Made by a program: the position numbers and the translations under genes. Below are positions 16,490-62,521 of a stretch of 64,000 bases of DNA, piece after piece. The notes beneath the pieces were generated by a model that ran no database searches, was not told the origin of the DNA, and saw only the letters and a program-made list of their open reading frames with translations. How positions within the stretch are numbered: position 1 is the first letter of the stretch; every line of letters starts with the position of its first letter. Source of the DNA: Cellvibrionales bacterium UBA1963 (lineage in GTDB: Bacteria > Pseudomonadota > Gammaproteobacteria > Pseudomonadales > UBA7434). The stretch is taken from contig DDED01000073.1 of assembly GCA_002336035.1 (NCBI GenBank), forward strand, positions 3,799 through 67,798, given 5' to 3'.

Positions 16490-16490
16490 G

Positions 16491-17707: not shown

Positions 17708-18816
17708 GACAGGCCTCGCATCGCAAGTCCGCATGCAACCATCGACAATGAACCGTTATCGTTTATTGCATGACAGTCTACTGACTCAGCCACTTGCATA
17801 TGAGCCAGTGGATTCGCAACGCTGGTTGGTATTTTAAGCCAATCACCTAGCCAAATTGAAAGCTCGTTAATAGACAAAAAATTACCTGCTAATATAATAC
17901 GGTCAATTTGTTCGTGCTGACTTGAAGACATGAAAAATTGCAAGGCAGCTTGTATGTGCAGAGCAATTTTTTCTTTGTCTTCATTTTTATTATCTTCACC
18001 GACTAATTGAAGCAGTTCATTTTCAGCGCTTTTTACTTTATCGTCTATGGCTCGATCGGTTTCGTTATCATTGACAACGAAAGACCCTTCTTTATGAAAA
18101 ACAGCCGTCTCACCTTTTATCACCGTCAGAGATAAGCCAGAATTACGCTCAAATAAAGCAATGATTTCATTACTTTTGTAGGCATGGTTTTTTTTAATCA
18201 AGGAAAAGGCACGTTCAATATTGTAAATCTTAATATCAACAATGACAGGGTCTAAGCCAATTTTTGTAAGTATATCGACTCTTTCATCAATCATTTCTTT
18301 TCGGCATGCTGCCAATAATATTTCACTGTCTTTATTACCGCCGGTATTGATTGTTGCAAAGTCTATCGACACATCATCCAGCGGATAAGGAATATACTTG
18401 TCTGCATCAGCAAATATTTTTGCTTCCAGATAATCGTCATTCAGATTGGCTGGCATATAAATCGTTTTAGTAATAACTGAAGACCCTGAAACAGCTATTG
18501 CAACTTTTTTGGTTCGAGTGTTTGCCTCTTCAATTAAACTTAATAGCTGCTCGCAAACAATATCAGGATTTTTTATTGCCCCATTCACAATGGCGTTCAT
18601 TGGTAATTTTTTAATTGCATAACTTATGACTGTCAAATCTTGACCGTCTGCATCTAACTCAACCAGCACTATAAACTGGTCATTTATATCGATACCCAGT
18701 AAAGAAGGCGTCTTCCGCAGATTTTTTACCGCACGTTTAATGCCATATGAATTAATAGTGTCTTGTAACGATTGCATTACTATTTTTAAGTTATTGATAT
18801 ACTTCACCATCGTCAC
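17698..18816 (-). CDS. pilM: Type IV pilus assembly ATPase-fold protein PilM
   Basis: 372 aa. Actin-like fold pattern (LLGIDINDQFIVLVEL...) and position in the cluster. The true start may be the internal Met at 18777. Confidence 0.9.
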   Translation of the reverse strand: MTMVKYINNLKIVMQSLQDTINSYGIKRAVKNLRKTPSLLGIDINDQFIVLVELDADGQDLTVISYAIKKLPMNAIVNGAIKNPDIVCEQLLSLIEEANTRTKKVAIAVSGSSVITKTIYMPANLNDDYLEAKIFADADKYIPYPLDDVSIDFATINTGGNKDSEILLAACRKEMIDERVDILTKIGLDPVIVDIKIYNIERAFSLIKKNHAYKSNEIIALFERNSGLSLTVIKGETAVFHKEGSFVVNDNETDRAIDDKVKSAENELLQLVGEDNKNEDKEKIALHIQAALQFFMSSSQHEQIDRIILAGNFLSINELSIWLGDWLKIPTSVANPLAHMQVAESVDCHAINDNGSLSMVACGLAMRGLSCQ

Positions 18817-18981
18817 CCTCCTCTGTTCGTGAATAATTCGCCAAGTTGTTAGATAATGGCTTGCTTTGGAACGTTATTTGCACTTATTTCTGCGATTCGC
18901 TTTTTTTACTTGTTTTCTTCGCTTTCTTTTCGCTATCCTGTCCAATTAATAATTTGTGTCCCCAAGGTCAAACAGACAAAT

Positions 18982-21504
18982 ATGCAAGCACGAAAGTCCA
19001 CATTAAAAACTCTTTTTACATTGATCCTGTTAGTCGCTCTATCTGGCGTCATCATTGTCTGTGCAACATATTTATATCTTAGCCCGAAGTTACCGTCAGT
19101 CGATGTGCTGCAAGAGGCAAAATTTCAAGTACCTTTGCGAATCTATTCACAAAATGGAAAATTAATGGGAGAGTTTGGAGAAAAGCTAAGAACTCCAATA
19201 AAAAAAGAACAAGTGCCCTCTCAATTTATCAACGCTATTTTGTCAGCGGAGGACGATAGATTTTTACAACATCAAGGTGTCGACATGGCAGGATTGTTGC
19301 GAGCCGCATTGCAACTCTTCGCATCTGGTAAGATTCAAAGTGGCGGTAGCACTATTACCATGCAAGTTGCTCGCAATTTTTTCCTTAGCAGTGAGAAAAC
19401 TTTTTTACGGAAATTCAACGAGATTTTTTTGGCCATACAAATAGAACAAAGCCTGTCTAAAGATCAAATTCTTGAGCTTTATATGAATAAAATTTATTTA
19501 GGCAAACGCGCTTATGGAGTTCAAGCTGCGGCACAGGTCTATTATGGGAAGCCGATTAATGAGCTAAATCTAGCGCAATTAGCAATGATTGCCGGCTTAC
19601 CAAAAGCGCCTTCGGCTTATAACCCCATCAACAACCCTCAGCGAGCATTAATACGTCGCAATTGGATTCTAGGCAGGATGAACAAGCTAGGTTTTATATC
19701 CGAGGAGGAGCAGACACTATCTACCTCACAACCAGTCACTGCTCGCTATCATGGCACCACTCTTGAATTAGAGGCCGGTCATGCTGCGGAAATAGCACGT
19801 AATCTTGCAGTAGAAAAACTGGGACGTAATGCGTATACCGATGGCTTTACCATTAAAACAACTATTAATAGTCACCAGCAAATACTGGCTCAACAAGCCG
19901 TCGAAAACGGCTTATACAACTATGATCTAAGGCATGGCCACCGCGGACCTGAGCAAACGTTTCCTTTGGATCAGCGCGAGCAATGGCCATCAATGATCAA
20001 TCAATTACAGACGATCAACGGTCTACGGCCAGCAGTAATCATATCTTTCTCTAACACGCCAAAGCCACCTCAAGCAGTGTCAAACGATGCCCCAGAGCTC
20101 CATAACAATGAAGAACAGTCACCGTCAATTAACCCTCAGAATTACGTACATTTACTCCTTCCTGACAACCAAAATATTGTCTTTCTTTGGAATAAAAAAA
20201 CCAACCCTTTACGAGTCTACATCACAGAAAATAAACGCGGCCCAACGGTAAATAATCTTGCAGAATTATTTAAGCCCGGAGATGTGATCCGAATAAAAAC
20301 CTCGTCTAAAAGCCAAGATTTATTCATAACGCAAATTCCTGATGTCAGCGCCAGTTTAATTGCTATACAACCAAATGAAGGCGCAATTAGCGCATTAATT
20401 GGTGGCTTTGATTTCAGATCAAGTAAGTTTAATCGTGCTACTCAAGCCCATCGCCAAACTGGCTCAAACCTGAAGCCTTTCATATACGCAGCCGCCCTCG
20501 AAAGTGGTTTCACCGCTGCCACTCTTATTAATGATGCTCCCATTGTATTCTCAGATCAACAACTCGAAAGTGATTGGCGACCTCAAAATTCAGGCGGTAC
20601 TTTTTCTGGGCCAACAACCATTCGTCAAGCTTTGTATAAATCTAAAAACTTAGTTTCAATTCGCTTACTGCAAGAGCTGGGTATTGGCAACGCAATACGC
20701 TACTTAGATCGTTTTACGTTCAATGATAGGCCGCTACCAAGAGACTTATCACTAGCATTAGGAAGTTATGCCATGACACCGCTGCAACTAGCCACTGCTT
20801 ATTCAAGCATTGCAAATGGTGGCTACAAAGTAACGCCGTATCTTGTTGATGAGATCCTTGACAGAGATGGAAAAGTGATTTTTAAATCGCCTAGAGTCAA
20901 CACTTGCATCGACTGCTTCAATACACGAATATCAGCCAATGTTGACAACCAAGAATTCAAAGAGGCCGATTCTCTTGACGCTTTATTGAGTGAGAAAGTG
21001 AAGTCCGGTGAGCCAGCTAAAAGAATTATGGATGCACGAGTGGTGTACATTATCGATAGTATTTTAAAAGACGCTATTCAGAAAGGAACAGCAAGAAAAG
21101 CCAAGGTTTTAGGTCGCTCCGATTTGGCAGGAAAAACCGGCACCACAAACGGTCCTACCGATGCCTGGTTTTCTGGCTACCATCCTGATTTAGTCGTCAC
21201 CACATGGCTAGGATTTGATAATAATCAAAATATTGGTACCCGTGAGTATGGTGGCTCAGCAGCTTTGCCTATATGGATAGACTTTATGCGAGGCAATCTC
21301 GACAAGCTTGACCAAACCACAGCTATTCGGCCTAGCGGTATGGTATCCGTGAAGATCGACAGTGAGTCTGGTCTTATAGCAAATGAGCTGTCAAAAAATA
21401 CCCGCTTTGAACTGTTCCTCGAAGAACACTCTCCACAACCAACGTCCACCATATTGCGCGCATCGAAACCTAAAGAAATGCGAATCAATGAAGAATTATT
21501 TTAG
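18982..21504 (+). CDS. mrcA: Penicillin-binding protein 1A (bifunctional transglycosylase/transpeptidase)
   Basis: GT51 motifs (SAEDDRFLQHQGVD, GGSTITMQVARN), transpeptidase SxxK (TGSNLKPF) and KTGT. Start placed at the ATG at 18982 (MQARKSTLKT + TM); the track ORF extends upstream to 18856. Divergent from pilM, as in Pseudomonas. Confidence 0.92.
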   Translation: MQARKSTLKTLFTLILLVALSGVIIVCATYLYLSPKLPSVDVLQEAKFQVPLRIYSQNGKLMGEFGEKLRTPIKKEQVPSQFINAILSAEDDRFLQHQGVDMAGLLRAALQLFASGKIQSGGSTITMQVARNFFLSSEKTFLRKFNEIFLAIQIEQSLSKDQILELYMNKIYLGKRAYGVQAAAQVYYGKPINELNLAQLAMIAGLPKAPSAYNPINNPQRALIRRNWILGRMNKLGFISEEEQTLSTSQPVTARYHGTTLELEAGHAAEIARNLAVEKLGRNAYTDGFTIKTTINSHQQILAQQAVENGLYNYDLRHGHRGPEQTFPLDQREQWPSMINQLQTINGLRPAVIISFSNTPKPPQAVSNDAPELHNNEEQSPSINPQNYVHLLLPDNQNIVFLWNKKTNPLRVYITENKRGPTVNNLAELFKPGDVIRIKTSSKSQDLFITQIPDVSASLIAIQPNEGAISALIGGFDFRSSKFNRATQAHRQTGSNLKPFIYAAALESGFTAATLINDAPIVFSDQQLESDWRPQNSGGTFSGPTTIRQALYKSKNLVSIRLLQELGIGNAIRYLDRFTFNDRPLPRDLSLALGSYAMTPLQLATAYSSIANGGYKVTPYLVDEILDRDGKVIFKSPRVNTCIDCFNTRISANVDNQEFKEADSLDALLSEKVKSGEPAKRIMDARVVYIIDSILKDAIQKGTARKAKVLGRSDLAGKTGTTNGPTDAWFSGYHPDLVVTTWLGFDNNQNIGTREYGGSAALPIWIDFMRGNLDKLDQTTAIRPSGMVSVKIDSESGLIANELSKNTRFELFLEEHSPQPTSTILRASKPKEMRINEELF

Positions 21505-46647: not shown

Positions 46648-47616
46648 CTAATTCTTATACGCACTGACTAACCCTTTCAGAGCAGAATTAATTTGAACGA
46701 TGCGTAAAATGCTCTTCAAGTCATACACACGATTATTTATAAGGCCAAGCAAAGATATTTCCCACATCTCTATTTGCCTCTTTAAATCATCAATCACAAG
46801 TATTGTCAAAGTAAAATCGTCACTGCTTAATTCTCTTGCCGCTTGATGCACTGTTTTAATTAATAGCTTAAAGTATGATTTTTTTTGAGACTTAGTCATA
46901 GCATAGCACCCTAGTTGATTGACACTATTAAACCATTCTTTATATGATCCTGATTCATATTTTGATTGAGCGACTCCATCTGATCGAATATTATAAAAAT
47001 ATACATTTTTATTTATCAACACCATTTTTGTTGCTTTAGCAGCGACTGAAGCCATAAAAATTAAATCTTCAGCCATTCTCACACCAACGGGAAAAGAAAT
47101 GCCATTCAGTGCTGATTTCAAAAAAATCTTACCCCATGAATGACCTCTTATTTGGTTATGTTTAAGTAACTCTGTGAAAATAGTCTCATCTAAGTATATC
47201 TTTTCTTTATTAACATTATACGAGGCAGGAAAACATATACCGTTTTTGCACAGCTCATTGTTGCCCTTGACGATATCTGCGTTATGAAAAATAGCGGCAT
47301 TGAACAACGTACGTAATGCGTTACTGGGCAAGAGGTCATCGGGGTCAAAAAAAATTATGTATTGTCCTGTTGCTTTAATCATGCCAATATTGCGCGTAGC
47401 AGATACGCCTTTATTAACGGAGTTTTGAATTAAGGTTATTTTATTACTGTGACGTTCATAGAGATGAGTACAGACATTAATGCTATTGTCTGTACTGCTA
47501 TCATCGACAAGTATTATCTCGTATTCACCAATGAAATCCTGATCAATCAGACTTTTTATACTCTTTAATAAATAACGATCGACATTATACACTGGAACGA
47601 TAATGCTAATATCCAT
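46648..47616 (-). CDS. Glycosyltransferase family 2
   Basis: 322 aa. MDISIIVPVYNVDRYL...EIILVDDSSTDNS...YIIFFDPDD. Confidence 0.88.
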   Translation of the reverse strand: MDISIIVPVYNVDRYLLKSIKSLIDQDFIGEYEIILVDDSSTDNSINVCTHLYERHSNKITLIQNSVNKGVSATRNIGMIKATGQYIIFFDPDDLLPSNALRTLFNAAIFHNADIVKGNNELCKNGICFPASYNVNKEKIYLDETIFTELLKHNQIRGHSWGKIFLKSALNGISFPVGVRMAEDLIFMASVAAKATKMVLINKNVYFYNIRSDGVAQSKYESGSYKEWFNSVNQLGCYAMTKSQKKSYFKLLIKTVHQAARELSSDDFTLTILVIDDLKRQIEMWEISLLGLINNRVYDLKSILRIVQINSALKGLVSAYKN

Positions 47617-47675
47617 AAACCACCTGAATTTGAAAAGTCAAAAGCTTAATAAACCAACAGGATAATCTAGAGACA

Positions 47676-48512
47676 TTATTCTGATAATAGACCTTTTGTA
47701 ACGGATTTTATTAATTCGGCTCTTTTAGAAAACACACCAAACTCACCTTTTCTATTGCGCAAGATTCGATTTACTTCCCTCAAGTAATAGTATATCGATT
47801 TATACTGCCCAAATACTCTCCGTATGATAACACCCTTTGAGTACGAATTATTATTACTAATGACTGTACCTGTTGAATCATCTGGGTGAATGTTTACGCA
47901 AATTGAATGATGTAAAACACGACCGCCAGCACGCTGAATGTCAGCTATAAGAACGGACTCTTCACCCATTGTAATTTTATTGTCACCTACGCCCATGTCT
48001 TCACGAAAAGAGATTTTTTTTTCTTTTAGATAGTGCACATCAATAATCATTTCAAATGAAGCATATCGTAAAATATTTTTTCCGCTCACAGGCGACAAGT
48101 CAATGGGGTATGAGGCCCTTTTATTACCTGATGCAGTAAGCGATTCATAGGTGTGACAGGCAATATTTACCCCGTGTAATGTATTCAAAATCTTTAGAAT
48201 ACATTGTGGGGTGAATACAAGGTCATCGTCCATAACCCACATGTAACGTGTACTTATAGCCTCAATTGCTATATTTCTGCTTTTTGTAACACCTATAGAA
48301 GTATCCCTTATATAACCAATATTAGGATGCTCCTTTATGGTTTTCATGACTGAATAACTGTCGTTACATAAATTTATATTCTTCGGGGTCTGGTGAATAA
48401 TCAAAAATTTTATTTGATTCGACTCAGCATTATCTAATGAATTATAAACATTTAGAGCACCCTTAATACGATTACCAAATGTTGAGCATGCAATGGTTAA
48501 ATCCTGGCTCAT
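47676..48512 (-). CDS. Putative GT-A-fold glycosyltransferase
   Basis: 278 aa. LTIACSTFGNR..., VTKSRNIAI...YMWVMDDDLVF (DxD). Confidence 0.55.
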   Translation of the reverse strand: MSQDLTIACSTFGNRIKGALNVYNSLDNAESNQIKFLIIHQTPKNINLCNDSYSVMKTIKEHPNIGYIRDTSIGVTKSRNIAIEAISTRYMWVMDDDLVFTPQCILKILNTLHGVNIACHTYESLTASGNKRASYPIDLSPVSGKNILRYASFEMIIDVHYLKEKKISFREDMGVGDNKITMGEESVLIADIQRAGGRVLHHSICVNIHPDDSTGTVISNNNSYSKGVIIRRVFGQYKSIYYYLREVNRILRNRKGEFGVFSKRAELIKSVTKGLLSE

Positions 48513-48735
48513 TTCAGCAGCCTATTTAAATGCTTTTTAGTCATAAAAAATCTCTTCATAAAAAAACTGCTTTTTATTTAGCAAAAATTAAAAAAGGCCT
48601 ATATTCTTTTTTCTATAAAATGGGTGACAACCATACACTCTGTTATTAAAAATAACGCTCAAATTAAAATTTTCAAAACCGATCGATTAGACCTAAGTTG
48701 TTCGCTTTGACATTATAACTAACTATTTACTGATG

Positions 48736-48774
48736 GTATTCAAGATATTACATGAAGAGTAATATCTTGAATAC
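48736..48774. repeat. Perfect 16-bp inverted repeat with a 7-nt spacer
   Basis: GTATTCAAGATATTAC-atgaaga-GTAATATCTTGAATAC, read directly from the sequence. It lies mid-way in the 585-bp divergent spacer between 48512 and 49098. Confidence 0.9.
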
Positions 48775-49097
48775 ATGACTATGACATAAACCATACAGCA
48801 TGTTATAAAGGAAAAAGACTATACTATCAAAAAATTACCATCTAACGCACAATTATATTTTTATTTTCACGTATAAGTGAAGTTTAAATATTCAATATTG
48901 ACAGTATAGATACAGATTTTTTACAGACGTGATTTTATATTAATGGTTATTCAGTACTTATAAGAGATTTTTAAAGTAGATAAGATTTTCTTCTATATTT
49001 TATTATATGTCGGCTTCATTTTGAAAGTTAGCAATTCAACCATTTATCGATAAAGCACCATACTGCTATTTCCCAACCGAAAGAGACGATATAGAAT

Positions 49098-49931
49098 ATG
49101 ACAGCGCACACAAACGGTAATATAAAGTTATCTTTTTGCTCAACAATCATGAATAGGCGTGAATCGCTAAAACAAACGTTACTCGCCAATCTTGAGATGA
49201 TTGCTCATTACAACGGAATAGCCGAATTAAATCTGATTAATTTTATCAAAGATAAAGAAGGTCAAAAAATACATGATTGGATATTAAACTTAGGGACTCG
49301 CCATCATTTCAACTACTTTGTTTGTACTGAAATGAATTTTTGGCACGCCTCTACTGCAAAAAATACCAGTCATATGGTCGCGTCAGGTTCGCTTCTAATC
49401 AATTTAGATTGCGATAATTTTATATCAAAAAATGCCCTCGATCAGTTAGCATCTTTTTCGAGCAGTCAACTCAGCAATACAATTTATCTTGGCTATACAG
49501 GCACGGTAGAGCGAAATTATTGCCCATTAAGAAACAAGAATCTCAAAGTAAAGTATAAATTTAAATCTAAAAAACCTTTTGACGGCTCTTTCGGTCTTAT
49601 GGGTTTTCCTTCACACCTATACAAAAAGATTGGTGGTTATGATGAGCAATTACCGCCAATGGGCGGCCAAGATAAAAATCTTTTTTTGCGCGCTATTGCT
49701 GCAAAACCAGAAATAATGGTTGTCCACATACCTTCTTTTCATGACCCTATACAAAACACAAAAAATGACGGCCTTATTAATATTGGCATTCCCAATTATC
49801 ATTGGAAAAAAAATGAACGAAGCGCTTATAAAAGGACTAAATATGTTCTTAGAAAGGATTTATTGCAGGCAAATATCGATAAAACTATAGGGCTTAATGT
49901 GATTAATGGCTACGCTTATGAATGTGATTGA
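49098..49931 (+). CDS. Putative GT-A-fold glycosyltransferase (galactosyltransferase-like C-terminal region)
   Basis: 277 aa. KLSFCSTIMNRRESL, LINLDCDNF (DxD), IGGYDEQLPPMGGQDKNL resembling the Glyco_transf_7C pattern. Confidence 0.55.
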   Translation: MTAHTNGNIKLSFCSTIMNRRESLKQTLLANLEMIAHYNGIAELNLINFIKDKEGQKIHDWILNLGTRHHFNYFVCTEMNFWHASTAKNTSHMVASGSLLINLDCDNFISKNALDQLASFSSSQLSNTIYLGYTGTVERNYCPLRNKNLKVKYKFKSKKPFDGSFGLMGFPSHLYKKIGGYDEQLPPMGGQDKNLFLRAIAAKPEIMVVHIPSFHDPIQNTKNDGLINIGIPNYHWKKNERSAYKRTKYVLRKDLLQANIDKTIGLNVINGYAYECD

Positions 49932-50520
49932 AATCATGGCGCAAGGCTTCTAGGTTCACCATTAATAAAAGTTGACGTAACGTAAAATATTAGTAGTGTC
50001 AATTGTCCTTACTACTTTGAGATTATATACAGAAACATTACCCTGCCTTTTCACCTTTGATATGACAATCCAAATATATATAGCGTCAAAAATAATGATA
50101 TATAGCTTTAAGGCTACCCTTATCAACCGCCCCTATTAACCACGTGCTAACGCCTACGGTTGTACGTGTAAGTAGTTATGCTCATTCACCTTGACTATAA
50201 AAATTCGTGAGTATCCAGAAATGATTTTATCTACTCTATCCGCATCAAAGACATACTAATAAAAAAAGCACTTGCAATGAGTTTTGCGGCCGTCGCGAGT
50301 TTTGTTAGCGCTTAACTTGAATTTGAAACAGGGCCTCTTACCGATAAAAATTATGATTTTAACGGTGACTTTGTCTTGTGTGTATGACTTCAGGTATGTG
50401 CGACTTAACTGTCCAGTGACACTGTAAATTCATGTAAAAAATAATGATCGATGAATTACTTAAAATAACATCATTGTTATGCTGATTAAAATTTTATTGT
50501 GCCACCAATAGGAAGCAAAT

Positions 50521-51288
50521 ATGGATCTTGATAAAAGACTGCCAATTTACGTCTTGACCATAGAGCCACCAACCGGACTGCGACGAGTACACTGTGAAAA
50601 ACTCTTTTCCAAACTTAATTTACATTTTAATTTTGTCAATGGAATTAAAAGTGGCAACTCAGAAGTCAAATATATATATTCAAAAACAAAAAATATATTT
50701 TTCTCAAAGCGAAATCTTACGACGTCTGAAATAGCTTGTTATTTTGGATTTAGAAAAATATGGCAGGCATTTCTCGATACCGGTCAACCGGTATGCTTAA
50801 TAGCCGAAGATGATATCAATATTATCAATGAAGATGATTTTAAGAACGTTATCATTCATGCTCAAGATAACGCAGCATGGGACATACTTAAATTATTCGA
50901 CTTTAAACCTAAGAAAATTCTTAATCGAGAGAGTTGGAACTCTCTTACAATTGCTGATTACAAATACCCCTCTTCAGGATGTGTTGCTTATCTAATTACG
51001 AGAAAAGCAGCTCAAAAATTGCTTTTACGTAAAAAAATATACCGCGCAGTTGATGAGGACTTTTCACATTGCTGGGAGTTTGGCTTACGAGTTAGATCGG
51101 TAAGTCCCAATCCTGTCACCGAAAACAGTGACGGCCTTGGTGGTTCATATATTGAGAAAGACAGATTATTAGAGAAAGGAAGTGTTTATATGGTACGAAG
51201 TATTTGGGGAATTTTTCTGCAAATGAGAAAACAGATATTGGGATTTTTTTATAGGAGAAAATTAGCGTCACATCAAAAAATCGTGTAA
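50521..51288 (+). CDS. Glycosyltransferase family 25 (LOS/LPS beta-glycosyltransferase type)
   Basis: 255 aa. IYVLTIEP...RR......L...NLHFNFVNG..., LTTSEIACYFGFRKIW, LIAEDDI. Confidence 0.75.
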   Translation: MDLDKRLPIYVLTIEPPTGLRRVHCEKLFSKLNLHFNFVNGIKSGNSEVKYIYSKTKNIFFSKRNLTTSEIACYFGFRKIWQAFLDTGQPVCLIAEDDINIINEDDFKNVIIHAQDNAAWDILKLFDFKPKKILNRESWNSLTIADYKYPSSGCVAYLITRKAAQKLLLRKKIYRAVDEDFSHCWEFGLRVRSVSPNPVTENSDGLGGSYIEKDRLLEKGSVYMVRSIWGIFLQMRKQILGFFYRRKLASHQKIV

Positions 51289-51326
51289 TAAATACTGACA
51301 TCTCCTCAAAGAATTTAATTAACATA

Positions 51327-52048
51327 TTACCCTCTTAAAGCCATTATTTCTCTTTTCATCCCCTCAATTAATTCTTGAGTAGTTATATCTACAGCTATTA
51401 GGGACTCATAGCCATTTTTTGTACTCCCCCATAACTGATGTGCATAAACAGGATCAGTGCCTGAGTAATATTCACCGGTATGATGTATCGGCAAAAAAAA
51501 TGGCTTGGTAAGATCGTGGCTGTCTCGGAAAAGGAAATCAATTTTGTCAGCAATTTAGGACCAGTAACCTCCCAAGCCTTATTTTTTTTGTATTTCCAGT
51601 GCATAAAATTATATTTATAAGCAATGTGTTTTTTACTTAATAAAAAATTCATTATTCTTTTGGCATCTTTTGAACCGATCTCACAACCCACTATACCATT
51701 GCTGATTAAGCCCTTCCTAACCGTTTCGTTTTCATAGCTTGCAAAAAAACTACAATCACTGAGCCAATCTGGAAGTGTAGCTAAAGAAATTAAATCTGCA
51801 TCTACCGTGTAACCGCCATATTTAGCTAAAATTTCCCAACGCATAAGATCAGCAACCCCACATAACTGATCTGAATCCCACATCTCCTTCATTAAATCCT
51901 TCAATTTCCAGTCATGAAAATGAAACTCATTATTCCTCCATATTATAATTTCCCAGCCAGGATGATTGACTTTCCATGTGTCGATTACTATATCCGGGCA
52001 ATTACTCTCATCGCCTACCCAAACAAAATTTAGTTTCTTAGGTATCAT
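51327..52048 (-). pseudogene. DXD-motif sugar-binding glycosyltransferase (Gly_transf_sug/capsule-synthesis-like), frameshifted in an A8/T8 tract
   Basis: The track ORF 51398..52060 ends in the implausible tail ...ILPSHFFCRYIIPVNITQALILFMHISYGGVQKMAMSP. After the T8 run (complement of 51493-51500) the adjacent frame reads LPIHHTGEYYSGTDPVYAHQLWGSTKNGYESLIAVDITTQELIEGMKREIMALRG*, with its stop at 51327-51329. One extra T would fuse the two parts into a 240-aa protein counted from the ATG at 52048. Confidence 0.7.
51493..51500. repeat. A8 homopolymer (T8 on the coding strand) at the frameshift point
   Basis: Counted directly: gc-aaaaaaaa-tgg at 51491-51503. Confidence 0.95.
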
Positions 52049-52328
52049 TACTTTACCCACTGATTGCTTTAATCTGTAATGTTATAATATTGTTATATAC
52101 GGCCATGGTAATTTAATAATTTCATAGCCTTACAAATTTTTAGTAAATTTATGTAAAATAAATATCAGTTACCTCAACCAAAACACATGCGTTTGCTATT
52201 CTTATGTAGAATTTTTTTTTTGAAATTATGGTTGCTTTTTGATGTTGCAGTTCACTAGGTTTTTATATACAAAACACCCTGCCAACAATTTACCATCGTT
52301 AGATTTGTTCGCCGGTTTATATAAATTA

Positions 52329-52733
52329 ATGATTAAAACATCTTGTGAGTGTCAGAATATAAAAGTTGAATGCGATTCTAAATTGCTATCTCGCATTGCA
52401 AGACAGTGTAATTGTAATTATTGTAAAGCGAGCCAAGCTGAATATCTAAGTGATTCAGATTCAAATGTGACATTTGAAATTACAGATTTCGAAAGCTATC
52501 GGCTTTCACAGAATGGGTATCCAATCGCAAAGCTTCATGAGTGTAATAATTATGGTGTAATATTGGTAACATTTAAAGTTGAAGGGCAGCTGTACTGTGT
52601 TATTAATGCTAAAGCTTTGCGAGTCAACGGTTACACGCTAGATGGTACATTAAAGGATTACAGTAATGAATCAAATGAACAAAGGCTATCTCGGCGTAAA
52701 AACAATTGGTTTAAAGCCGTTCAAGTCACATAA
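52329..52733 (+). CDS. GFA/CENP-V-family Cys-rich protein (glutathione-dependent formaldehyde-activating-enzyme-like)
   Basis: CxC...CxCxxC pattern (SCECQNIKVE...QCNCNYCKAS). Start set to the ATG at 52329, giving 134 aa; the track ORF starts at 52239. Confidence 0.4.
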   Translation: MIKTSCECQNIKVECDSKLLSRIARQCNCNYCKASQAEYLSDSDSNVTFEITDFESYRLSQNGYPIAKLHECNNYGVILVTFKVEGQLYCVINAKALRVNGYTLDGTLKDYSNESNEQRLSRRKNNWFKAVQVT

Positions 52734-52897
52734 AGGTCTAAGACTGCCGGACACTGCATACTTTTTTGACACCACATATTGAGCAAAGGAATGTTTACTT
52801 AGATAAATACGTCGCTTTAATCGCGTTCTGATACCAAAAAAAATCAGCTACCCGCGGAATTTACATTTCATAACAACCAACTTCTTTAGGAGTTATT

Positions 52898-54151
52898 TTG
52901 GTACGAGCGCCCTACTTTCATTCCAATGTAAATTATTCTAAGGCAGGATATTTTTTTCTTCTGATTTTTTCTTTTTTAGCCTTTTCAGGTATTAGTCCTG
53001 CACTAGAAAGAATTTCATTTTTTATTTTGTTGTGCATTACATTAGCCAACTTCAATCGTTTTAGCTTTAAAAAGATTAATCCGATTCTTTTATTAAGCTT
53101 CACTTGGTTTATATACATATGGCTTAATACTTTTTTTCATCTTGCTGTAAACGATTTTTTAGTATTTTCTGATAGAGCAACTCTCTTGAATCGAGGGAAA
53201 GATTGGTCATTGATCGCCTTTTTCCCAATTGTGTCGCTGTTTCTGAATAGCGATCAACGCAGAAGTACTTTTATTTTATTTGCCGGAATTGGATTGCTCG
53301 CTTCAATCATATTATCATTCAAAAATTTAAATATTGTTGATTTTTTTCATATCCAAGCGCGCTATGGATCCACGCACTCCATTAATCACTTTGCCTTATT
53401 TATCGGAACCGCATTAATTGGCGCTGTTGTATTTGGCTCTCAACTTCTTGAAAAAAATAAGTATGGATTTTTTTTATCCATATTAGTCGCTTCTTTTTCT
53501 ACTTTTCTTTTAGTTAAAACCCAATCAAGAATGTCATGGTTGGCAATTTCATTCGTCATGATTTTCATTTTTCTTATGTTTTATTTTTTTAAAAAAAAGG
53601 GCTCAAAAAAACCATCAATTATCAATTTTGCTTTTATTCTGCTACCCTGTTTTTTTGTGATTTTGTTTTCACAATCTATTTTAGAGTATCGGCTTAGCGC
53701 CAAAGAGCCAGTCATTCGACATGGCATTGTCTCGGCAGATCATTCTATCAATGGCCGTGTTGAATTATTCAAATTTGGTTATGAAAAATGGCTTGAAAAG
53801 CCATTTTTTGGACATGGGCCCATAGATTCTAAAATCTTAATCTCCCAATCAGGTAGCAATTATATAAGTGAGCTATGGCACTTACATAATACTTATCTTG
53901 AAGTCATAGTTTGCTGGGGCATTGTTGGGCTTGTTTTATGTGCAATCACAATATTTTTACTCCTGAAATCTGTTTTTTTAAGCTTGCTCAGAAATGAGGC
54001 CTCACCGATACACTGCTTATTCTTTTTATCATCGATATTATATTGGTTACTCTGGCTAGTAGCAGAGTTTAATATTTATCGGGATACTGGACAATATTAT
54101 TGGCTAATGTTAGCCGGATTAGGCTATAGTATTTATCAAAAAAATAATTGA
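52898..54151 (+). CDS. waaL: O-antigen ligase family protein (Wzy_C domain)
   Basis: 417 aa, about 10-12 TM helices. AGGAG RBS followed by a TTG start. A periplasmic loop followed by WHLHNTYLEVIVCWGIVGL, typical of the ligase family. Confidence 0.75.
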   Translation: MVRAPYFHSNVNYSKAGYFFLLIFSFLAFSGISPALERISFFILLCITLANFNRFSFKKINPILLLSFTWFIYIWLNTFFHLAVNDFLVFSDRATLLNRGKDWSLIAFFPIVSLFLNSDQRRSTFILFAGIGLLASIILSFKNLNIVDFFHIQARYGSTHSINHFALFIGTALIGAVVFGSQLLEKNKYGFFLSILVASFSTFLLVKTQSRMSWLAISFVMIFIFLMFYFFKKKGSKKPSIINFAFILLPCFFVILFSQSILEYRLSAKEPVIRHGIVSADHSINGRVELFKFGYEKWLEKPFFGHGPIDSKILISQSGSNYISELWHLHNTYLEVIVCWGIVGLVLCAITIFLLLKSVFLSLLRNEASPIHCLFFLSSILYWLLWLVAEFNIYRDTGQYYWLMLAGLGYSIYQKNN

Positions 54152-55408: not shown

Positions 55409-56338
55409 TTGAGGTCAGATAAGATTTCACCTACGCCAACACATTCTTCCCTATACCATCCGCGGCATTGGTTTAGCTGGTTGGCTATTTTTATGGTGCG
55501 GCTAATCACTTGCTTACCGTTTGGCGTTCAAAAAAAAATCGGTACCGCTTTAGCTTATACCGTATTATTTGTTAGCGCCAAGCGTCGGCATATTGTTCAA
55601 ACGAATGTTCGTCTTTGCTTTCCAGAACTGAGCGATTCAGAGCAGCGAGCGTTCGTGCGTGATATTTTTATCGCCAACAGCATTGGCTTTTTCGAAATCG
55701 CCTCTGCTTGGTGGGCCAACCCAAACTCCTTAGCCGATCGCTTTACTGTTGAGGGCCTCGAACATATTGAAGCCGCTAAAAAAGACGGGCATGGGGTATT
55801 ACTAATCAGTGGTCATTTTGTTCACCTAGACCTCTGTGGCATCTTTATCAACCATGTTACGCCGATTGATGTGGTCTATCGACCTAATAACAACCCCGTA
55901 ATGGAACAGGTGATTACCCAAGGCCGGCAACGTTTTTTTGATGCTGTGCTTGACCGATCGAATGTGCGCACCATAGTTAAACGCTTACGGGCAGGAAAAA
56001 CCGTGTGGTATTCGCCCGATCAAGACTTTGGTCGAAAACATGTTGTGTTTGCGCCGTTCTTTGGCGTCAATGCAGCCACCATTACGGCGCCTGCGCGCCT
56101 GCTCGCTATGGGTAACGCGAAAGCGGTGGGAGCAAGCTTTTATCGGGATAATGTCAGCAACCAATACCGGCTGACTTTTCACCCCATTGACCCCAGCTTT
56201 CCAAGCGGCGATGACTTCCAAGATTCCTTGCTAATTAATCGCTTACTTGAAGATTGGATCCGCCAACAGCCGGACCAGTATATGTGGGTTCATCGCCGTT
56301 TCAAAACCCGACCAGAAGGCGAAAGTTCACTGTATTAA
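55409..56338 (+). CDS. lpxL: Lipid A biosynthesis lauroyl/late acyltransferase
   Basis: 309 aa. LYHPRHWFSWL, SGHFVHLD (HX4D), YMWVHRRFKTRPEG; close in pattern to E. coli LpxL. TTG start. Confidence 0.88.
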   Translation: MRSDKISPTPTHSSLYHPRHWFSWLAIFMVRLITCLPFGVQKKIGTALAYTVLFVSAKRRHIVQTNVRLCFPELSDSEQRAFVRDIFIANSIGFFEIASAWWANPNSLADRFTVEGLEHIEAAKKDGHGVLLISGHFVHLDLCGIFINHVTPIDVVYRPNNNPVMEQVITQGRQRFFDAVLDRSNVRTIVKRLRAGKTVWYSPDQDFGRKHVVFAPFFGVNAATITAPARLLAMGNAKAVGASFYRDNVSNQYRLTFHPIDPSFPSGDDFQDSLLINRLLEDWIRQQPDQYMWVHRRFKTRPEGESSLY

Positions 56339-57569: not shown

Positions 57570-58073
57570 ATGACTGTTAAAACCGACATCACTGACTCGC
57601 TACTATCCATCCATCAACGCTTAACGCAGTTAGAAGCCGTTAATGCGATTAAAACCTTAAAAGCCACTTATCTGATGGCCTGCGACACCAAAGATCCGAC
57701 ACTGATGCGCGACTGCTTTGTTAACGATAAACTAGTGATAGATTACGGGCCCGTCGGTCAATTCAATCATCGCGAACAATTGGTTGAAATTTTCACTGAA
57801 ATCGGTTGCCACTCTCACATGCTGGAAAGCCACCATGGCCACAATCCCATCATTGAACTCATTGATGATCATTACGCCAAAGGGAGTTGGGAACTGGCCT
57901 ACCAAGTGCTGAATAGCCGTGAAAAAACACTCACACAAATCGCCATGATTTACCGTGACGAATACCGCTGCGTCAACGGCGAATGGAAGATAAGTATGAC
58001 GGTCACACAGACACTCTCAACCTTAGTGTACGACATTAGCAGTGAACAGCCTGTGCTGGTGCATGCAGCCTAG
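57570..58073 (+). CDS. SnoaL-like / NTF2-fold protein
   Basis: 167 aa. LEAVNAIKTLKATYLMACDTKD...F..D...DYGP pattern, typical of SnoaL_4-type proteins. Confidence 0.55.
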   Translation: MTVKTDITDSLLSIHQRLTQLEAVNAIKTLKATYLMACDTKDPTLMRDCFVNDKLVIDYGPVGQFNHREQLVEIFTEIGCHSHMLESHHGHNPIIELIDDHYAKGSWELAYQVLNSREKTLTQIAMIYRDEYRCVNGEWKISMTVTQTLSTLVYDISSEQPVLVHAA

Positions 58074-58082
58074 CGTATTAAG

Positions 58083-60470
58083 TTATTGGGTTGCTGTTCT
58101 GTGACGATAAGCGCCTAAAGCCAATAATGGCATCAGTAACCAAAAGAGGCCCCCTGCAGCCATGGCGGGTACGCGTCGGGCAAGGGGTTCATCCGAAAGG
58201 CTGAAGGCCTCAATAGAAGCCATCACTTTATCTCTATCGCTAGCATCTTGATAATCACCACCAAAGGCTTGCTCTACCGCATTGGTAAAACCGTCGCCGT
58301 CAATATCGCTATCGCACGCATCACCCAAACTATCGGCATCAAGATTGGCTTGGTCAGCATTAGCCATATCAACACAATTATCTAAACTATTAAGTACCGT
58401 ATCACCATCATTGTCTTGATCGATAGTAATCGTGATCGTTTGTTCTGTAGTGCCGCCCTTATCATCTGTCACCAAAACAATAAAAGTATCAACACCTAAA
58501 TAACGCTCATTGGCTCGATAAAACCAAGTGCCACTGAACAAATTAATGGTCGCTGTACCATAAGTCGGCTTTTCTGATATTGTAAAATAGCTACCATCCG
58601 TTAGGCCATTGACATCGGTAGCCAGCAAAGTTCCTCCTGCGGACGAGCCAAGCGCAATTGTATCGGAGACTGCCCCTGTAATAATAGACGGTGACTGGTG
58701 ACTTTTTAACTTGAATTCTTTTTGGGTGAAGACATATACCGCGCCTTTTTCTCTGTCATCCAATTTAGCGCCAATTAACAATGTGTCCTGGCTAATCGCA
58801 ACAGCTGAAACAAAAAAATATTTTTTATTCACCGTTAATTTTTGAGATTCCTGCCATTGACCTGCTTTATCTTTAGTAAAAATATAGGCACTATCAGCCG
58901 ACGCTATCAAGGCTTTATCTCCATAAAGATCAATTGATTTTCCAAAATCAGAAGCTGTTCTGTGTTGGATGGATTGAACCTCTCGCCATTGCCCATTGTG
59001 GCCCTTATGGAAAATATAAACTATGGGTCCTATAAAAAGTTTATGTGCTGTTATAAAAACAGTATCGCCTTCAATCGCAACCGAATAACCAAAATCATTG
59101 GTGTTACTGGGCGAGTCAATGGTCTGCTCTATAAGCCACTGGCCACTCAGACCCTTATGAAAGACATAGACTACGCCGCTATTCGTTGGGCCGCTTGCGC
59201 TGACAATCAATGTATCACCATCTGCCGCAATAGCACGACTAAAATTATCACCTACCAAACCGGTGATCGAACTGATCTTCTGCGTCTCGTTCCATTGCTG
59301 ATCACCGTCTTGATTAAAAACAGACACCGCGCCAGAATAACCAGCACTGAAGATAAAAGGCTCTTTAACCGCGCCAACGAACGCAATGTTTTCAGCAAGT
59401 GACACCGAGCGACCAAAACCCTTCATCTCAAGATCAATACTTAGAGGGCGCAATTGACCGTTTTCTTTCCACCGACCCTGAACGTCTTTACTAAACAAAT
59501 ACACCGAACCAGAATCATCAATCCTCGAACTATTTACGGCACCAATTAAAACGCGATCATTCTCAATCGCTACTGAGGCTCCAAATTGGTCATAGGACAC
59601 GCCATCATTGGCAGTTATGATGTGATCCTGGCTATGATATACATTAAGAATACTCGTATGGGTTTGTCCGTGACTGTTACTGCCCCAACACACGACACCG
59701 GTTTCGTCGATAGCGCAAGTATGATTGTGACCGGCAGAAATTTCATCAGGTTTCGATAATTCAGGGACACTGCTTTGACCGTTAACATTATTTCCCCAAC
59801 AGACGACACCACTGTCATCTAATGCGCAAGTATGAAAGCCACCGGCAGAAACGCTGCGGGGATTAGATAACGTGGGCGGTGTCGCTTGGCCTCTATCATT
59901 GCCGCCCCAACACACCACACCGGTATCGTCCAATGCACAACTATGATAAAAACCGGCGGTTAACTTAATAGGGTTTGAGAGCAAAGGCGCGTTTGTTTGG
60001 CCGTCGTGGTTATAGCCCCAGCATTGCACTTGTCCCTCATCAATCGCACAACTATGATAATAACCCACACTGACCTGGCTCGGGCTGACCAAATCGGGCG
60101 GGTTGGCTTGACCGCTATAATTAGATCCCCAGCAATGCACACCAACCGTATCGATCGCACAACTATGGTATTGACCAGCAGCAACTTGAGTGGGGTTTAA
60201 TAACGAAGGCGACGATGTCTGACCATCATTATTAGTCCCCCAACAAACCACACCGGTGTCATCTAATGCACAACTATGGTAACCACCGGTTGATAGTAGA
60301 CGAGGGGTTTGTAAATGAGGAGCTTCATTAAGGCCATCGCGAGTCTCGCCCCAGCACAACGAACGTAATTCACCCATCGCACAACTACTGTTATAACCGG
60401 CACTTAAAAAGGGTTCGGCAAAAACAGCGCTTGCCATGCAGCCTATAACGATAACAATGAATAACCTCAT
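58083..60470 (-). CDS. Secreted/anchored double-propeller protein: 7 short RCC1-like repeats, ~6 FG-GAP-like repeats, a cadherin/Ig-like domain, TSP type-3 repeats and a C-terminal anchor tail
   Basis: 795 aa. Signal peptide MRLFIVIVIGCMASAVFA|EP. A 38-aa repeat YHSCALDDTGVVCWG.N..GQ occurs 7 times. FG.SVAI.GDT.LIGA...G.VYVF occurs about 6 times. DNCVDMANADQANLDADSLGDACDSDIDGDGF. Tail RRVPAMAAGGLFWLLMPLLALGAYRHRTATQ. Confidence 0.8.
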   Translation of the reverse strand: MRLFIVIVIGCMASAVFAEPFLSAGYNSSCAMGELRSLCWGETRDGLNEAPHLQTPRLLSTGGYHSCALDDTGVVCWGTNNDGQTSSPSLLNPTQVAAGQYHSCAIDTVGVHCWGSNYSGQANPPDLVSPSQVSVGYYHSCAIDEGQVQCWGYNHDGQTNAPLLSNPIKLTAGFYHSCALDDTGVVCWGGNDRGQATPPTLSNPRSVSAGGFHTCALDDSGVVCWGNNVNGQSSVPELSKPDEISAGHNHTCAIDETGVVCWGSNSHGQTHTSILNVYHSQDHIITANDGVSYDQFGASVAIENDRVLIGAVNSSRIDDSGSVYLFSKDVQGRWKENGQLRPLSIDLEMKGFGRSVSLAENIAFVGAVKEPFIFSAGYSGAVSVFNQDGDQQWNETQKISSITGLVGDNFSRAIAADGDTLIVSASGPTNSGVVYVFHKGLSGQWLIEQTIDSPSNTNDFGYSVAIEGDTVFITAHKLFIGPIVYIFHKGHNGQWREVQSIQHRTASDFGKSIDLYGDKALIASADSAYIFTKDKAGQWQESQKLTVNKKYFFVSAVAISQDTLLIGAKLDDREKGAVYVFTQKEFKLKSHQSPSIITGAVSDTIALGSSAGGTLLATDVNGLTDGSYFTISEKPTYGTATINLFSGTWFYRANERYLGVDTFIVLVTDDKGGTTEQTITITIDQDNDGDTVLNSLDNCVDMANADQANLDADSLGDACDSDIDGDGFTNAVEQAFGGDYQDASDRDKVMASIEAFSLSDEPLARRVPAMAAGGLFWLLMPLLALGAYRHRTATQ
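59655..60401 (-). repeat. Seven tandem ~114-bp coding repeats (RCC1-like blades)
   Basis: The periodicity is seen in the protein: the CWG motif recurs at aa ~39, 76, 113, 150, 187, 224, 261. The DNA copies have diverged. Coordinates are approximate. Confidence 0.7.
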
Positions 60471-62521
60471 TGTTTTACCCTTAGCCTTACTGCTTTCATC
60501 CGGAACAAAGCAACTAATGTCAGTGATACAGCTAAGCCAGCCAAGCCAAGCCAGCCCATTAGAGGAACGTTCTTTGCCGTTGTTTCTAAGTTACTGTAGC
60601 GCTCAAGCGCTCGTTGAAGCACATCAATGTCATCCTTATCGCGAGGATCGGTCTCAAATTTATTTTCAATGTTATTTGAAAAGCCATCGCCGTCAATATC
60701 GATATCACAGGCATCACCACGATGATCCGCGTCAATATCGATCTGAGCATGATTTTTTATAGCGGGGCAATTATCGTAGGCATTATCTATGCCGTCTTGA
60801 TCATCATCTGAAGGCACTAAAGGCCGAGCGTCATCACCGTCAGCAATACCGTCATCATCGGTGTCACGATCATAAGGGTCTGCGCCAGCCATTAATTCAT
60901 CACCATTATTCAAACCGTCTTCATCGTAGTCCTGCCGAGCGCTTACTGTGATAATAATAGTCACGCACTGAGTATTATTATCCTCATCGGTCACGCATGC
61001 TCGAACTTGGTACTTTCCATCTGCTAACGTGAGGTTTATCGCACGACTATTATCCGTTTCGGGCGTATAATTGTTAGTTCCTACACGCCGATAGGACCAA
61101 TTAATTGTGCGAATTACACCGTCTTCTTTATCTTGAGCTTTAGCGCTAAAAGGTTGATCGACACTTAAATAATCAAAGTCTTCTTCTGGTGCAGTGATTG
61201 TGATTGTGGGCAAGGTATTTTGTGTCACATTGACACTAAAACGTTCAACCCCTGTATTACCATCACTATCAGTTGCCGTGATTGTGATGTATGACTGACC
61301 TGACGCATTCGCTAACGGTGTGAGCGACAAGACTCTCAAAATATCATCGGTGCGACTTTGTCCGTCGAAAGTCCCCGATATAACCAATTGACTATTGGGA
61401 ATAAGGGCTTCATTCGAAGAGCGAGCAATTAAACCCATTTCAAAGGTACTACTCAACCCATGATTTAATGCATTGTCATTATCAAATATTGAAAATGACA
61501 CTTTACCAACAGAACCGCTCAATAAATCTAAAGGGGCAATTCGACTCAATACTGGTTTATCCCCCGCGCCATGCGTTAACCAGCCTATATCTGCTAATAA
61601 TCCTTTTGCTAAACCGATGCTGTTATAAAGCACGCCAGAAGAAATCGCTGGCTCCATTAATTCATTGGGCGATAAGAAAGAGCTAAAGTGCGCACCAGAA
61701 CTGCCTGACTGGTAATTGTTAGGTGCGTAAATACGCGGGTGTCGGAAACCATCAAACTGATTAAAACCAGAAACGAGTTGCTCACTGCCGTCACGAACAT
61801 TATCACCAGACCAGCAAACGTGTGGCGCATTAATGAGTGAATCTTTTCGTTGACTTGCATTCATGTCAGACCAGAGTAATGGCTGATCATGATCATGATC
61901 ATGAACTAAAGAGGAGTAAATGTCGGGTACATCGTAAAACCATGTCCCATTTTCGAAAGAGAATTTAAAAGCAAAACCGAGTCCATGAATAATTTCGTGC
62001 AGAATTATATTCAGCAAACTGTACTTGTTTGAGGGCACGCTACCAAACCCATAGTACCAAGCAGTGCCACTATTAAAATCCATAAAAAAGTCACTTATAT
62101 TAGGCGACCTGTCTTCTTTTAAATATTGATTAGCCAATGGCGCAAGGTAAAATGTTTTGTCTCTCGGGAATTCGGGTAAACCAGAAAAGCCACCGTAACT
62201 GCCTGCTTGGGCTAACGTATTGCCGGAGAGGGGAATGAATTTAGCATTGATATCAATATCAATGCGGATATTGATAATACTGGCAATGATGTCCGCTGCG
62301 TAGTCAAACACCAACGCTCTCTGCTGACCAATGGTTGACCCTGAATTTCCGTCAATAGCCGATGCTGGCGTTTGATCATTAAACCCCTCATTAGGATTAT
62401 CAAGATTAATAACATTGACCTTGCCCGCTAAAGCGAATGAAGGTGTTAAAAACAAACAAACACCAAACACAATGGCGATAAATTCGTTATAAAATGAACA
62501 AGCCTTTACCGTATTAATCAC
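60467..62521 (-). CDS. Secreted/anchored HExxH zinc metalloprotease (leishmanolysin-like pattern) with Ig-like domains, TSP type-3 repeats and a C-terminal anchor tail
   Basis: 684 aa. Signal peptide ...VCLFLTPSFALA|GK. HEIIHGLGF at 61985-61999 (HEIIH). Downstream GAHFSS...NELMEP. DNCPAIKNHAQIDIDADHRGDACDIDIDGDGF. Tail KNVPLMGWLGLAGLAVSLTLVALFRMKAVRLRVKQ. GTGA and ATGA overlaps with the neighbouring genes. Confidence 0.75.
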   Translation of the reverse strand: MINTVKACSFYNEFIAIVFGVCLFLTPSFALAGKVNVINLDNPNEGFNDQTPASAIDGNSGSTIGQQRALVFDYAADIIASIINIRIDIDINAKFIPLSGNTLAQAGSYGGFSGLPEFPRDKTFYLAPLANQYLKEDRSPNISDFFMDFNSGTAWYYGFGSVPSNKYSLLNIILHEIIHGLGFAFKFSFENGTWFYDVPDIYSSLVHDHDHDQPLLWSDMNASQRKDSLINAPHVCWSGDNVRDGSEQLVSGFNQFDGFRHPRIYAPNNYQSGSSGAHFSSFLSPNELMEPAISSGVLYNSIGLAKGLLADIGWLTHGAGDKPVLSRIAPLDLLSGSVGKVSFSIFDNDNALNHGLSSTFEMGLIARSSNEALIPNSQLVISGTFDGQSRTDDILRVLSLTPLANASGQSYITITATDSDGNTGVERFSVNVTQNTLPTITITAPEEDFDYLSVDQPFSAKAQDKEDGVIRTINWSYRRVGTNNYTPETDNSRAINLTLADGKYQVRACVTDEDNNTQCVTIIITVSARQDYDEDGLNNGDELMAGADPYDRDTDDDGIADGDDARPLVPSDDDQDGIDNAYDNCPAIKNHAQIDIDADHRGDACDIDIDGDGFSNNIENKFETDPRDKDDIDVLQRALERYSNLETTAKNVPLMGWLGLAGLAVSLTLVALFRMKAVRLRVKQ

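Follow-up and report, generated by a model that had tools for sequence, protein, structure and literature searches.

Coexisting T8 and T9 alleles of a GT32-like glycosyltransferase gene in a lipopolysaccharide gene cluster of an uncultured marine gammaproteobacterium

The stretch of DNA analysed here (64,000 nucleotides of contig DDED01000073.1, assembly GCA_002336035.1, from Cellvibrionales bacterium UBA1963; hereafter the window) carries a gene for a GT32-like glycosyltransferase with a DXD motif, which is put out of frame by one missing base in a run of eight T residues (T8) on its coding strand. The gene lies in a cluster for lipopolysaccharide (LPS) biosynthesis. Nearly identical contigs from marine metagenomes carry the same run either as T8, with the truncated reading frame, or as T9, with the gene intact. 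The frameshift is a real natural allele. It is probably a loss-of-function allele that was generated by slippage and is segregating in a dispensable LPS glycosyltransferase gene, within a block of genes under relaxed or diversifying selection, with one sub-lineage in which the gene is decaying as a pseudogene. The preliminary description of this region, made from the sequence alone, had proposed a candidate phase-variable switch that is currently off, an interpretation that is partly supported by the present analysis; the tract is probably not specialised or selected for switching at high frequency.

The gene occupies positions 51327..52048 of the minus strand (PF04488/PF05704) and encodes 240 amino acids only with T9; it begins at the ATG at 52048, and the restored stop codon is at 51327-51329. 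In the window the run is T8 on the coding strand (plus-strand A8, 51493..51500), as read directly from the sequence, and constitutes a -1 frameshift site. The frame as present (51398..52048, minus strand) runs from the same ATG to a stop codon at 51398-51400 and yields 216 amino acids, or 220 from an alternative GTG at 52060; homologues align from the MIPKK start at the ATG and not from the GTG. This product is well formed through ILPSHFF, and is then followed by 31 unrelated, out-of-frame residues that end in SHFFCRYIIPVNITQALILFMHISYGGVQKMAMSP. When one T is added, the reading becomes SHFFLPIHHTGEYYSG and continues to IMALRG, with the intact T9 codons CAT TTT TTT TTG specifying H183, F184, F185 and L186. 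The displaced C-terminal coding segment (51327..51492, minus strand), which corresponds to residues 186-240 of the intact protein, is open and identical to that of the intact T9 allele, and its 165 nt contain no single-nucleotide polymorphism (SNP) in any of the T8 contigs described below. The truncated product thus retains W10 and D83-A-D85 and is without the conserved segment that includes P187, H189, Y195, G197 and G199.

Two other readings of the lesion were considered and rejected. Loss of two further T residues (T6) would also restore the frame, but would delete one residue of the FF pair, and because this pair is conserved T9 rather than T6 is the intact state. A 55-residue open reading frame (ORF) with a TTG start at 51327-51494 is not a separate gene but the displaced C-terminus of the glycosyltransferase. 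Every homopolymer in the window was tested for changes of one base in either direction that would merge ORFs, and no frameshifted gene other than the GT32-like one came to light in the 64 kb; two other candidates for such merging, PilP/PilO and SCP2/UbiB, proved to be ordinary gene boundaries. A second homopolymer inside the gene, a coding-strand A8 at 51582..51589 (minus strand, codons K154-N156), has the same length in 8/8 contigs that cover it. For annotation, the gene is best flagged as a frameshifted polymorphic allele; it should neither be silently corrected nor be called as a short ORF.

The assignment to a family rests on several lines of evidence. The protein matches two Pfam models above their gathering scores, namely PF04488 (Gly_transf_sug, 27.6 bits, cut-off 23) and PF05704 (Caps_synth, 29.7 bits, cut-off 24.5), and a database search returned 190 homologues, many of them labelled glycosyltransferase (GT) family 32 or OCH1-like. 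In an alignment of 35 homologues, W10, D83-A-D85 and H183 are invariant, while F184, F185, P187, H189, Y195, G197 and G199 are conserved in at least 90%. The homologues read PSHFFLPIHH across the position of the tract, and none of them ends like the 220-residue ORF. The frame that is restored by the additional T is therefore the true C-terminus. The family profile matches the Legionella effector SetA (E = 1e-16) and the toxins TcdA (1e-8) and TcdB, and the N-terminal FxWVG region with W10 aligns with SetA and TcdA. AlphaFold (AF2) modelled the restored protein confidently with a GT-A fold, at a predicted local distance difference test score (pLDDT) of 93.8 and a predicted template modelling score (pTM) of 0.90. 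Foldseek placed the model with 8x4k, 8ovt, 4mix and 9n3s at probability 1.0, identity to solved structures being only 12-24%; the fold matches are GT-A DXD transferases (SetA, YeGT, PaToxG, Och1, TcdA and LgtC). NCBIfam holds no specific model for the GT32-like protein, the neighbouring GT25 protein, the ligase or the 164-residue ORF described below. A scan of GTDB species representatives with the homologue alignment yielded relatives of no more than 40-46% identity (Marinobacter, sphingomonads), and no close genome carrying the gene. For the ArgS protein encoded in the window, the best matches with a name are from Halieaceae (Halioglobus, Seongchinamella), at about 65% identity, and numerous nameless proteins from marine metagenomes come closer; Halieaceae are the nearest named relatives of this uncultured planktonic bacterium.

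Direct reading confirms the coordinates, sequence and frame arithmetic of the preliminary description. Its assignment of the gene to a DXD glycosyltransferase in an LPS-core neighbourhood is borne out by Pfam, the homologues and the neighbouring genes, and the alignment of 35 homologues agrees with its proposal of a -1 frameshift in a homopolymer, beyond which the +1T frame encodes the genuine C-terminus.

The evidence for natural polymorphism comes from a survey of related contigs, which were recovered by look-ups with the exact protein and with neighbouring proteins, and which are 99.65-99.98% identical to the window. The exact proteins of the window are present on contigs from Tara Oceans and other marine metagenomes. 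T8 was found in eight sequences, the window and seven contigs: L002 (Tara ERR599122; 22 SNPs in 20.6 kb), L003 (ERZ856576), L004 (Logan SRR5321807), L085 (ERZ27286440), L086 (a TARA scaffold), L095 (JGI 3300020396) and L096 (CESI01270569). T9 was found in four contigs. The product of L087 (MDSY01092912), P0123, is exactly the restored protein of the window; the other three are L088 (ERR13064787), and L001 (ERZ1694383) and L093 (ERZ23498559), both of which carry I188V, H189N and E234K. Two further searches added no allele: a scan of JGI metagenomes returned only the MDSY01 contig already counted, and a look-up with the invariant neighbouring protein of 163 amino acids gave one new contig (L104), whose GT32 fragment of 142 amino acids stops short of tract codons 183-186.

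The only difference in length across these contigs is in the GT32 tract; all other runs of at least 8 nt are invariant. The invariant controls include T9 at 48014-48022, A9 at 55530-55538, T10 at 52212-52221 (five contigs) and the A8 inside the gene. A change of length was seen in 4/9 contigs at the GT32 tract, whereas about 45 comparisons of other tracts, contig by contig, gave none (Fisher p = 4e-4). T8 is not an assembly error, because eight independent Illumina-era assemblies have it, and it is not a universally fixed pseudogene, because T9 is present in four other contigs. The first of these alternatives is excluded for practical purposes, as is a sequencing artefact, and the second is excluded. 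The preliminary description had held a sequencing error or a fixed pseudogene to be equally possible; both are contradicted by the T8 and T9 contigs (eight and four, respectively) and by the invariant control tracts.

Three observations on this part of the contigs may be recorded here. The T10 at 52212-52221 is the longest homopolymer of the window and lies in the divergent intergenic region between the GT32-like gene and the 164-residue ORF. Assemblies tend to break near the GT32 start: L085 ends at 52102, L087 and L095 at 52098 and L096 at 52095, and another contig (L094) starts at 51988. In sample ERZ27286440, two contigs overlap at the GT32 start and differ at 52019 and 52081, which shows that strains co-occur in one sample.

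Haplotypes around the tract show that part of the T8 population has gone further than the loss of one base. L095 and L096 combine T8 with W10C, a substitution at the invariant Trp, and L085 combines T8 with W10C, V21E, A103S, E106K and a stop codon at K157. This nested W10C series shows that T8 has persisted through several further substitutions without reverting, and in the sub-lineage of L095, L096 and L085 the GT32-like gene is a decaying pseudogene. Among the T9 alleles, H189N, at a position that is conserved in at least 90% of the homologues, is carried by the haplotype of L001 and L093. This haplotype has nine nonsynonymous changes over the GT25, GT32 and WaaL genes, and one synonymous change nearby.

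An excess of amino-acid polymorphism extends over the adjoining surface-glycan genes. Population SNPs are 8 nonsynonymous and 2 synonymous in the GT32-like gene, 3 and 0 in the convergent neighbour, which encodes a GT25 (LPS biosynthesis) glycosyltransferase by Pfam (50521..51288, plus strand), and 7 and 1 in the gene for a WaaL-like O-antigen ligase (Wzy_C by Pfam; 52898..54151, plus strand). For the three genes together the ratio is 18:3, versus 7:17 for the remaining genes between 41.4 and 62 kb (Fisher p = 2e-4). Such a pattern points to selection on the outer LPS as a whole, in the GT25/GT32/WaaL block, that is relaxed or diversifying.

The length of the tract itself does not call for a special explanation. 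When the gene was shuffled among synonymous codons, keeping the protein and the codon usage at 36% GC, an A/T run of at least 9 nt arose in 55% of the shuffles and one of at least 8 nt in 88%. The window contains 32 A/T runs of at least 8 nt in total, and comparison with synonymous shuffles showed no enrichment of homopolymers in the glycan cluster beyond that in the rest of the window. The closest relative, L090 (67% identity), reads CAT TTT TTT CTA at this site, that is T7, and 72 homologues from genomes have T2-T8 at the HFF motif. Marinobacter sp. SS5-14b (L009) and others have an in-frame PSHFFCPRH encoded with T8 (CAT TTT TTT TGC CC). Runs of T7-T8 thus arise repeatedly from the HFF motif, even where the genome has a GC content of 50-56%. 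The tract is no longer than expected by chance, and it is lineage-specific and not long-maintained. What does go beyond chance is that no other gene in the window was found to be frameshifted and that no other homopolymer changes its length among the related contigs. Within the 64 kb of the window, no second length-variable tract and no other gene split at a homopolymer was found that would suggest a set of phase-variable genes (phasome).

Whether the polymorphism reflects a dedicated switch is the main question of interpretation. A true contingency locus would flip between T9 and T8 by slipped-strand mispairing within clones, turning one LPS sugar on and off under fluctuating selection by phage or grazers, with the window caught in the off state. 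We regard this as possible but rather unlikely, and several observations speak for it and weigh against the loss-of-function reading. A repeat inside the ORF toggles the frame, with T8 truncated and T9 intact, and both lengths occur among strains that are at least 99.65% identical. This is the one tract out of about 13 long ones that varies in length, and it sits in a gene class typical of contingency loci, amid surface-glycan genes with an excess of amino-acid polymorphism. Most T8 alleles are otherwise intact: five of them (the window, L002, L003, L004 and L086) are pristine apart from the tract and identical to the intact T9 protein, so that in these the off state has either arisen recently or can still be reversed; two T9 alleles are likewise otherwise pristine. 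L087, with T9, shares SNPs 50382 and 48779 with L002 and 52081 with L085, both T8, as well as 50099, 48861 and 48796 with L002 and L085 but not with the window, which is also T8. A tract state that does not track the flanking haplotypes would fit repeated switching, and tract state and SNP 52081, about 590 bp away, fail the four-gamete test. The contigs, moreover, are population consensus sequences, in which heterogeneity within clones is hidden. There is also a precedent in the 8-9 nt poly-A tracts of wbeL and manA in Vibrio cholerae, with natural manA* strains that have A8 (PMC3441752). However, the SNP pair 51761/51350 fails the four-gamete test as well, and because this failure between SNPs shows recombination or chimeric consensus at the same scale, which suffices for a mosaic, recurrent slippage cannot be inferred. 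For a dedicated switch T9 is a short tract, and the protein sequence leads one to expect such a run by chance; it has not been kept in the closest relative, where T7 precedes CTA. T8 in one sub-lineage has gained five more substitutions, including a stop, and has not reverted; with H189N on the T9 haplotype of L001 and L093, even the alleles in the on state look unconstrained, and the cluster is without a second variable tract. What stands of the proposed switch is the frame-toggling repeat and the presence of both lengths among near-identical strains; what tells against it is a chance-level, lineage-specific tract, a stable T8 with decay, and the ratio of 8:2 in the gene.

Two further explanations concern the T8 allele itself. 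An error of sequencing or assembly in the window, with the gene in reality intact, might be suspected since such errors classically occur in homopolymers and since the window is most likely a consensus sequence derived from a metagenome; the exact 216-residue product is present on NCBI, ENA and Logan contigs of up to 73 kb. T8 has, however, been assembled independently eight times, in different projects and with different assemblers, it is linked to SNP haplotypes of its own (W10C, 52081), and the T9, A9 and T10 control tracts never vary in length between contigs. The chance of such an error is minute, and this explanation is effectively refuted. Alternatively, T8 might be leaky rather than null, if RNA polymerase added one U or the ribosome slipped by -1 on U_UUU_UUU, and would then be a low-expression allele for attenuated glycosylation. 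The zero-frame mRNA, CA U_UUU_UUU GCC, is indeed a perfect X_XXY_YYZ heptamer, and either a -1 shift or one additional U yields exactly the wild-type H-F-F-L-P-I-H-H; the 165 nt downstream are open and unchanged in all T8 contigs, although at a divergence of about 0.1% an absence of SNPs over so short a segment is statistically uninformative. Transcriptional insertions of single nucleotides are known from A/T runs and rise exponentially with their length (PMC5574713), productive slippage takes place on runs of 8-9 nt in some organisms, with runs of 8 nt sufficing in certain bacteria and in human apoB (PMC1088944), and an A7 allele, wbeL*, of V. cholerae was shown to decode leakily (PMC3441752). 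A stimulatory RNA structure was sought downstream of the run and none was found, the folds being weaker than those of shuffled sequences (z = +0.93 and +0.68), nor was a Shine-Dalgarno-like element seen upstream of it. The split arrangement is not conserved, homologues and T9 alleles being single ORFs, and disabling changes have accumulated in the T8 sub-lineage, contrary to selection on a rescued product. We thus consider a leaky allele very unlikely, and any rescue of T8 would be a low-level effect that is not programmed. The most far-reaching version would combine these ideas into a contingency locus of a free-living open-ocean bacterium, maintained worldwide by phage-driven, frequency-dependent selection, with a leaky T8 that gives graded surface glycosylation; this seems to us unlikely.

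The loss-of-function reading can be set out as follows. T9 is simply the expected by-product of the conserved H-F-F-L being encoded in AT-rich codons (CAT TTT TTT TTG), and one T was probably lost from it through replication slippage. The T8 product would keep the predicted nucleotide-sugar-binding N-terminus and the DXD motif, lose the conserved last 54 residues and presumably be inactive, and an inactive GT32-like enzyme would leave one sugar missing from the LPS. T8 and T9 coexist in the global population, within the low-GC surface-glycan block of GT25, GT32 and WaaL. A single slippage event could in principle reverse T8, and pressure from phage or grazers may be the selective agent. If T8/T9 alters the LPS outer core, it would be a single-nucleotide case of standing variation in phage or grazer receptors of wild marine bacterioplankton. 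Ocean metagenomes from around the globe yield both alleles, so that existing read archives make it testable whether planktonic bacteria maintain the diversity of their surface glycans by fast reversible switching or by slower gene loss and recombination.

The neighbourhood of the gene is one of LPS biosynthesis, because a gene for the LpxL/HtrB lipid A late acyltransferase (55409..56338, plus strand; TIGR02207, 318 bits, cut-off 297.8) anchors the cluster. Other neighbours are a GT4 gene and, upstream, several GT2 genes, a pyruvyl transferase and an ATP-binding cassette (ABC) exporter. From the context of GT25, the WaaL-like ligase, GT4 and LpxL, we infer a role of the GT32-like enzyme in the LPS core or outer core. 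A Cys-rich ORF of 164 amino acids without a match in Pfam or NCBIfam (52239-52733, plus strand) lies between the GT32-like gene and the ligase gene. It is present in all related contigs and its SNPs are solely synonymous (0:3), so that it counts as a conserved but functionally unassigned member of the LPS cluster. A weak sigma-70-like match was seen on the minus strand at 52111-52084, with SNPs 52081 and 52095 in or beside it.

Genes in the block 46648-54151 have a GC content of 33-36%, versus 40-48% in flanking genes, and exchangeable surface-glycan islands typically form low-GC blocks of this kind. Inside the glycosyltransferase cluster, two intergenic gaps, at 48513-49097 and 49932-50520, are unusually long (about 590 nt each) and have a high density of SNPs (five and three sites, respectively). 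A scan of both for gene remnants found no ORF of more than 56 amino acids; they may represent what is left of eroded genes, or spacers with a regulatory role. Further along, in a SnoaL-like gene (57570-58073), L002 has seven SNPs within 47 bp (57683-57729) and is otherwise 99.9% identical, which looks like a short patch of recombination or gene conversion. In the wider context (15965-21504 and 58083-62521), a type IV pilus pilN/O/P cluster adjoins a PBP1A-like gene, and there are two very large minus-strand ORFs of 795 and 684 amino acids with matches to RCC1, FG-GAP, WD40-like and TSP3 repeats, which are probably secreted or surface proteins.

In terms of the enzyme, the protein has the Trp, the DXD motif and the GT-A fold in common with SetA, Yersinia YeGT, Photorhabdus PaToxG, fungal Och1 and TcdA/TcdB. 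Unlike these, it is small (240 amino acids), stands alone and is found within an LPS cluster.

In terms of the tract, the obvious comparison is with the classical contingency loci for lipooligosaccharide (LOS), such as lgtA/C/D of Neisseria, lic2A and lgtC of Haemophilus and wlaN and cgtB of Campylobacter. These have longer poly-G/C or 4-nt repeats that switch at 1e-2 to 1e-5; there are many of them per genome, and the repeats are conserved across strains of host-adapted bacteria. The present gene resembles them in that a simple repeat toggles the frame of an LOS/LPS glycosyltransferase ORF and would change one surface sugar, and the GT25 family, to which enzymes of the lic2A type belong, is represented by the neighbouring gene. 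It differs from them in having one T9 tract, without the signature of a phasome within the 64 kb, and in belonging to free-living plankton.

Rescue by slippage or -1 frameshifting at A/T runs is established for the T9 of Shigella mxiE, the A9 of Thermus dnaX, insertion sequence (IS) elements and poly-A genes of endosymbionts (Baranov et al. 2005, PMC1088944). The U8 run described here is similar, in that one extra U restores a conserved downstream frame. It is unlike these cases in that the split is not conserved, there is no stimulatory element, and intact single-ORF alleles coexist with the split ones.

The closest precedent is that of wbeL (A8) and manA (A9) in V. cholerae O1, where one base is lost under pressure from phage ICP1 and truncated O-antigen enzymes result (Seed et al. 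2012, PMC3441752). The manA* allele (A8) was present in 2/37 sequenced strains, whereas the wbeL tract was 100% conserved over the 37 strains; selection by ICP1 and the LPS phenotype were established by experiment, as was the ability of manA to revert, and wbeL* proved to be decoded leakily (PMC3441752). Both cases concern LPS genes of an aquatic gammaproteobacterium with an A/T run of 8-9 nt inside the ORF, a truncating deletion of a single base and natural frameshifted alleles, and for both a leaky decoding of the shortened run has been considered; this precedent weakens the earlier suggestion that such a locus would be notable in a marine-type gammaproteobacterium. The present enzyme is GT32-like and not part of a tetronate or perosamine pathway, the evidence for it comes from sequences, and its tract is at chance level and absent from the nearest relative, with one off lineage decaying. 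Seed et al. cautioned that an irreversible wbeL would represent hypermutation and not phase variation (PMC3441752), and this caveat applies equally to the tract described here. What the present case adds to prior ones is that ocean metagenomes directly show both alleles coexisting in one uncultured planktonic species.

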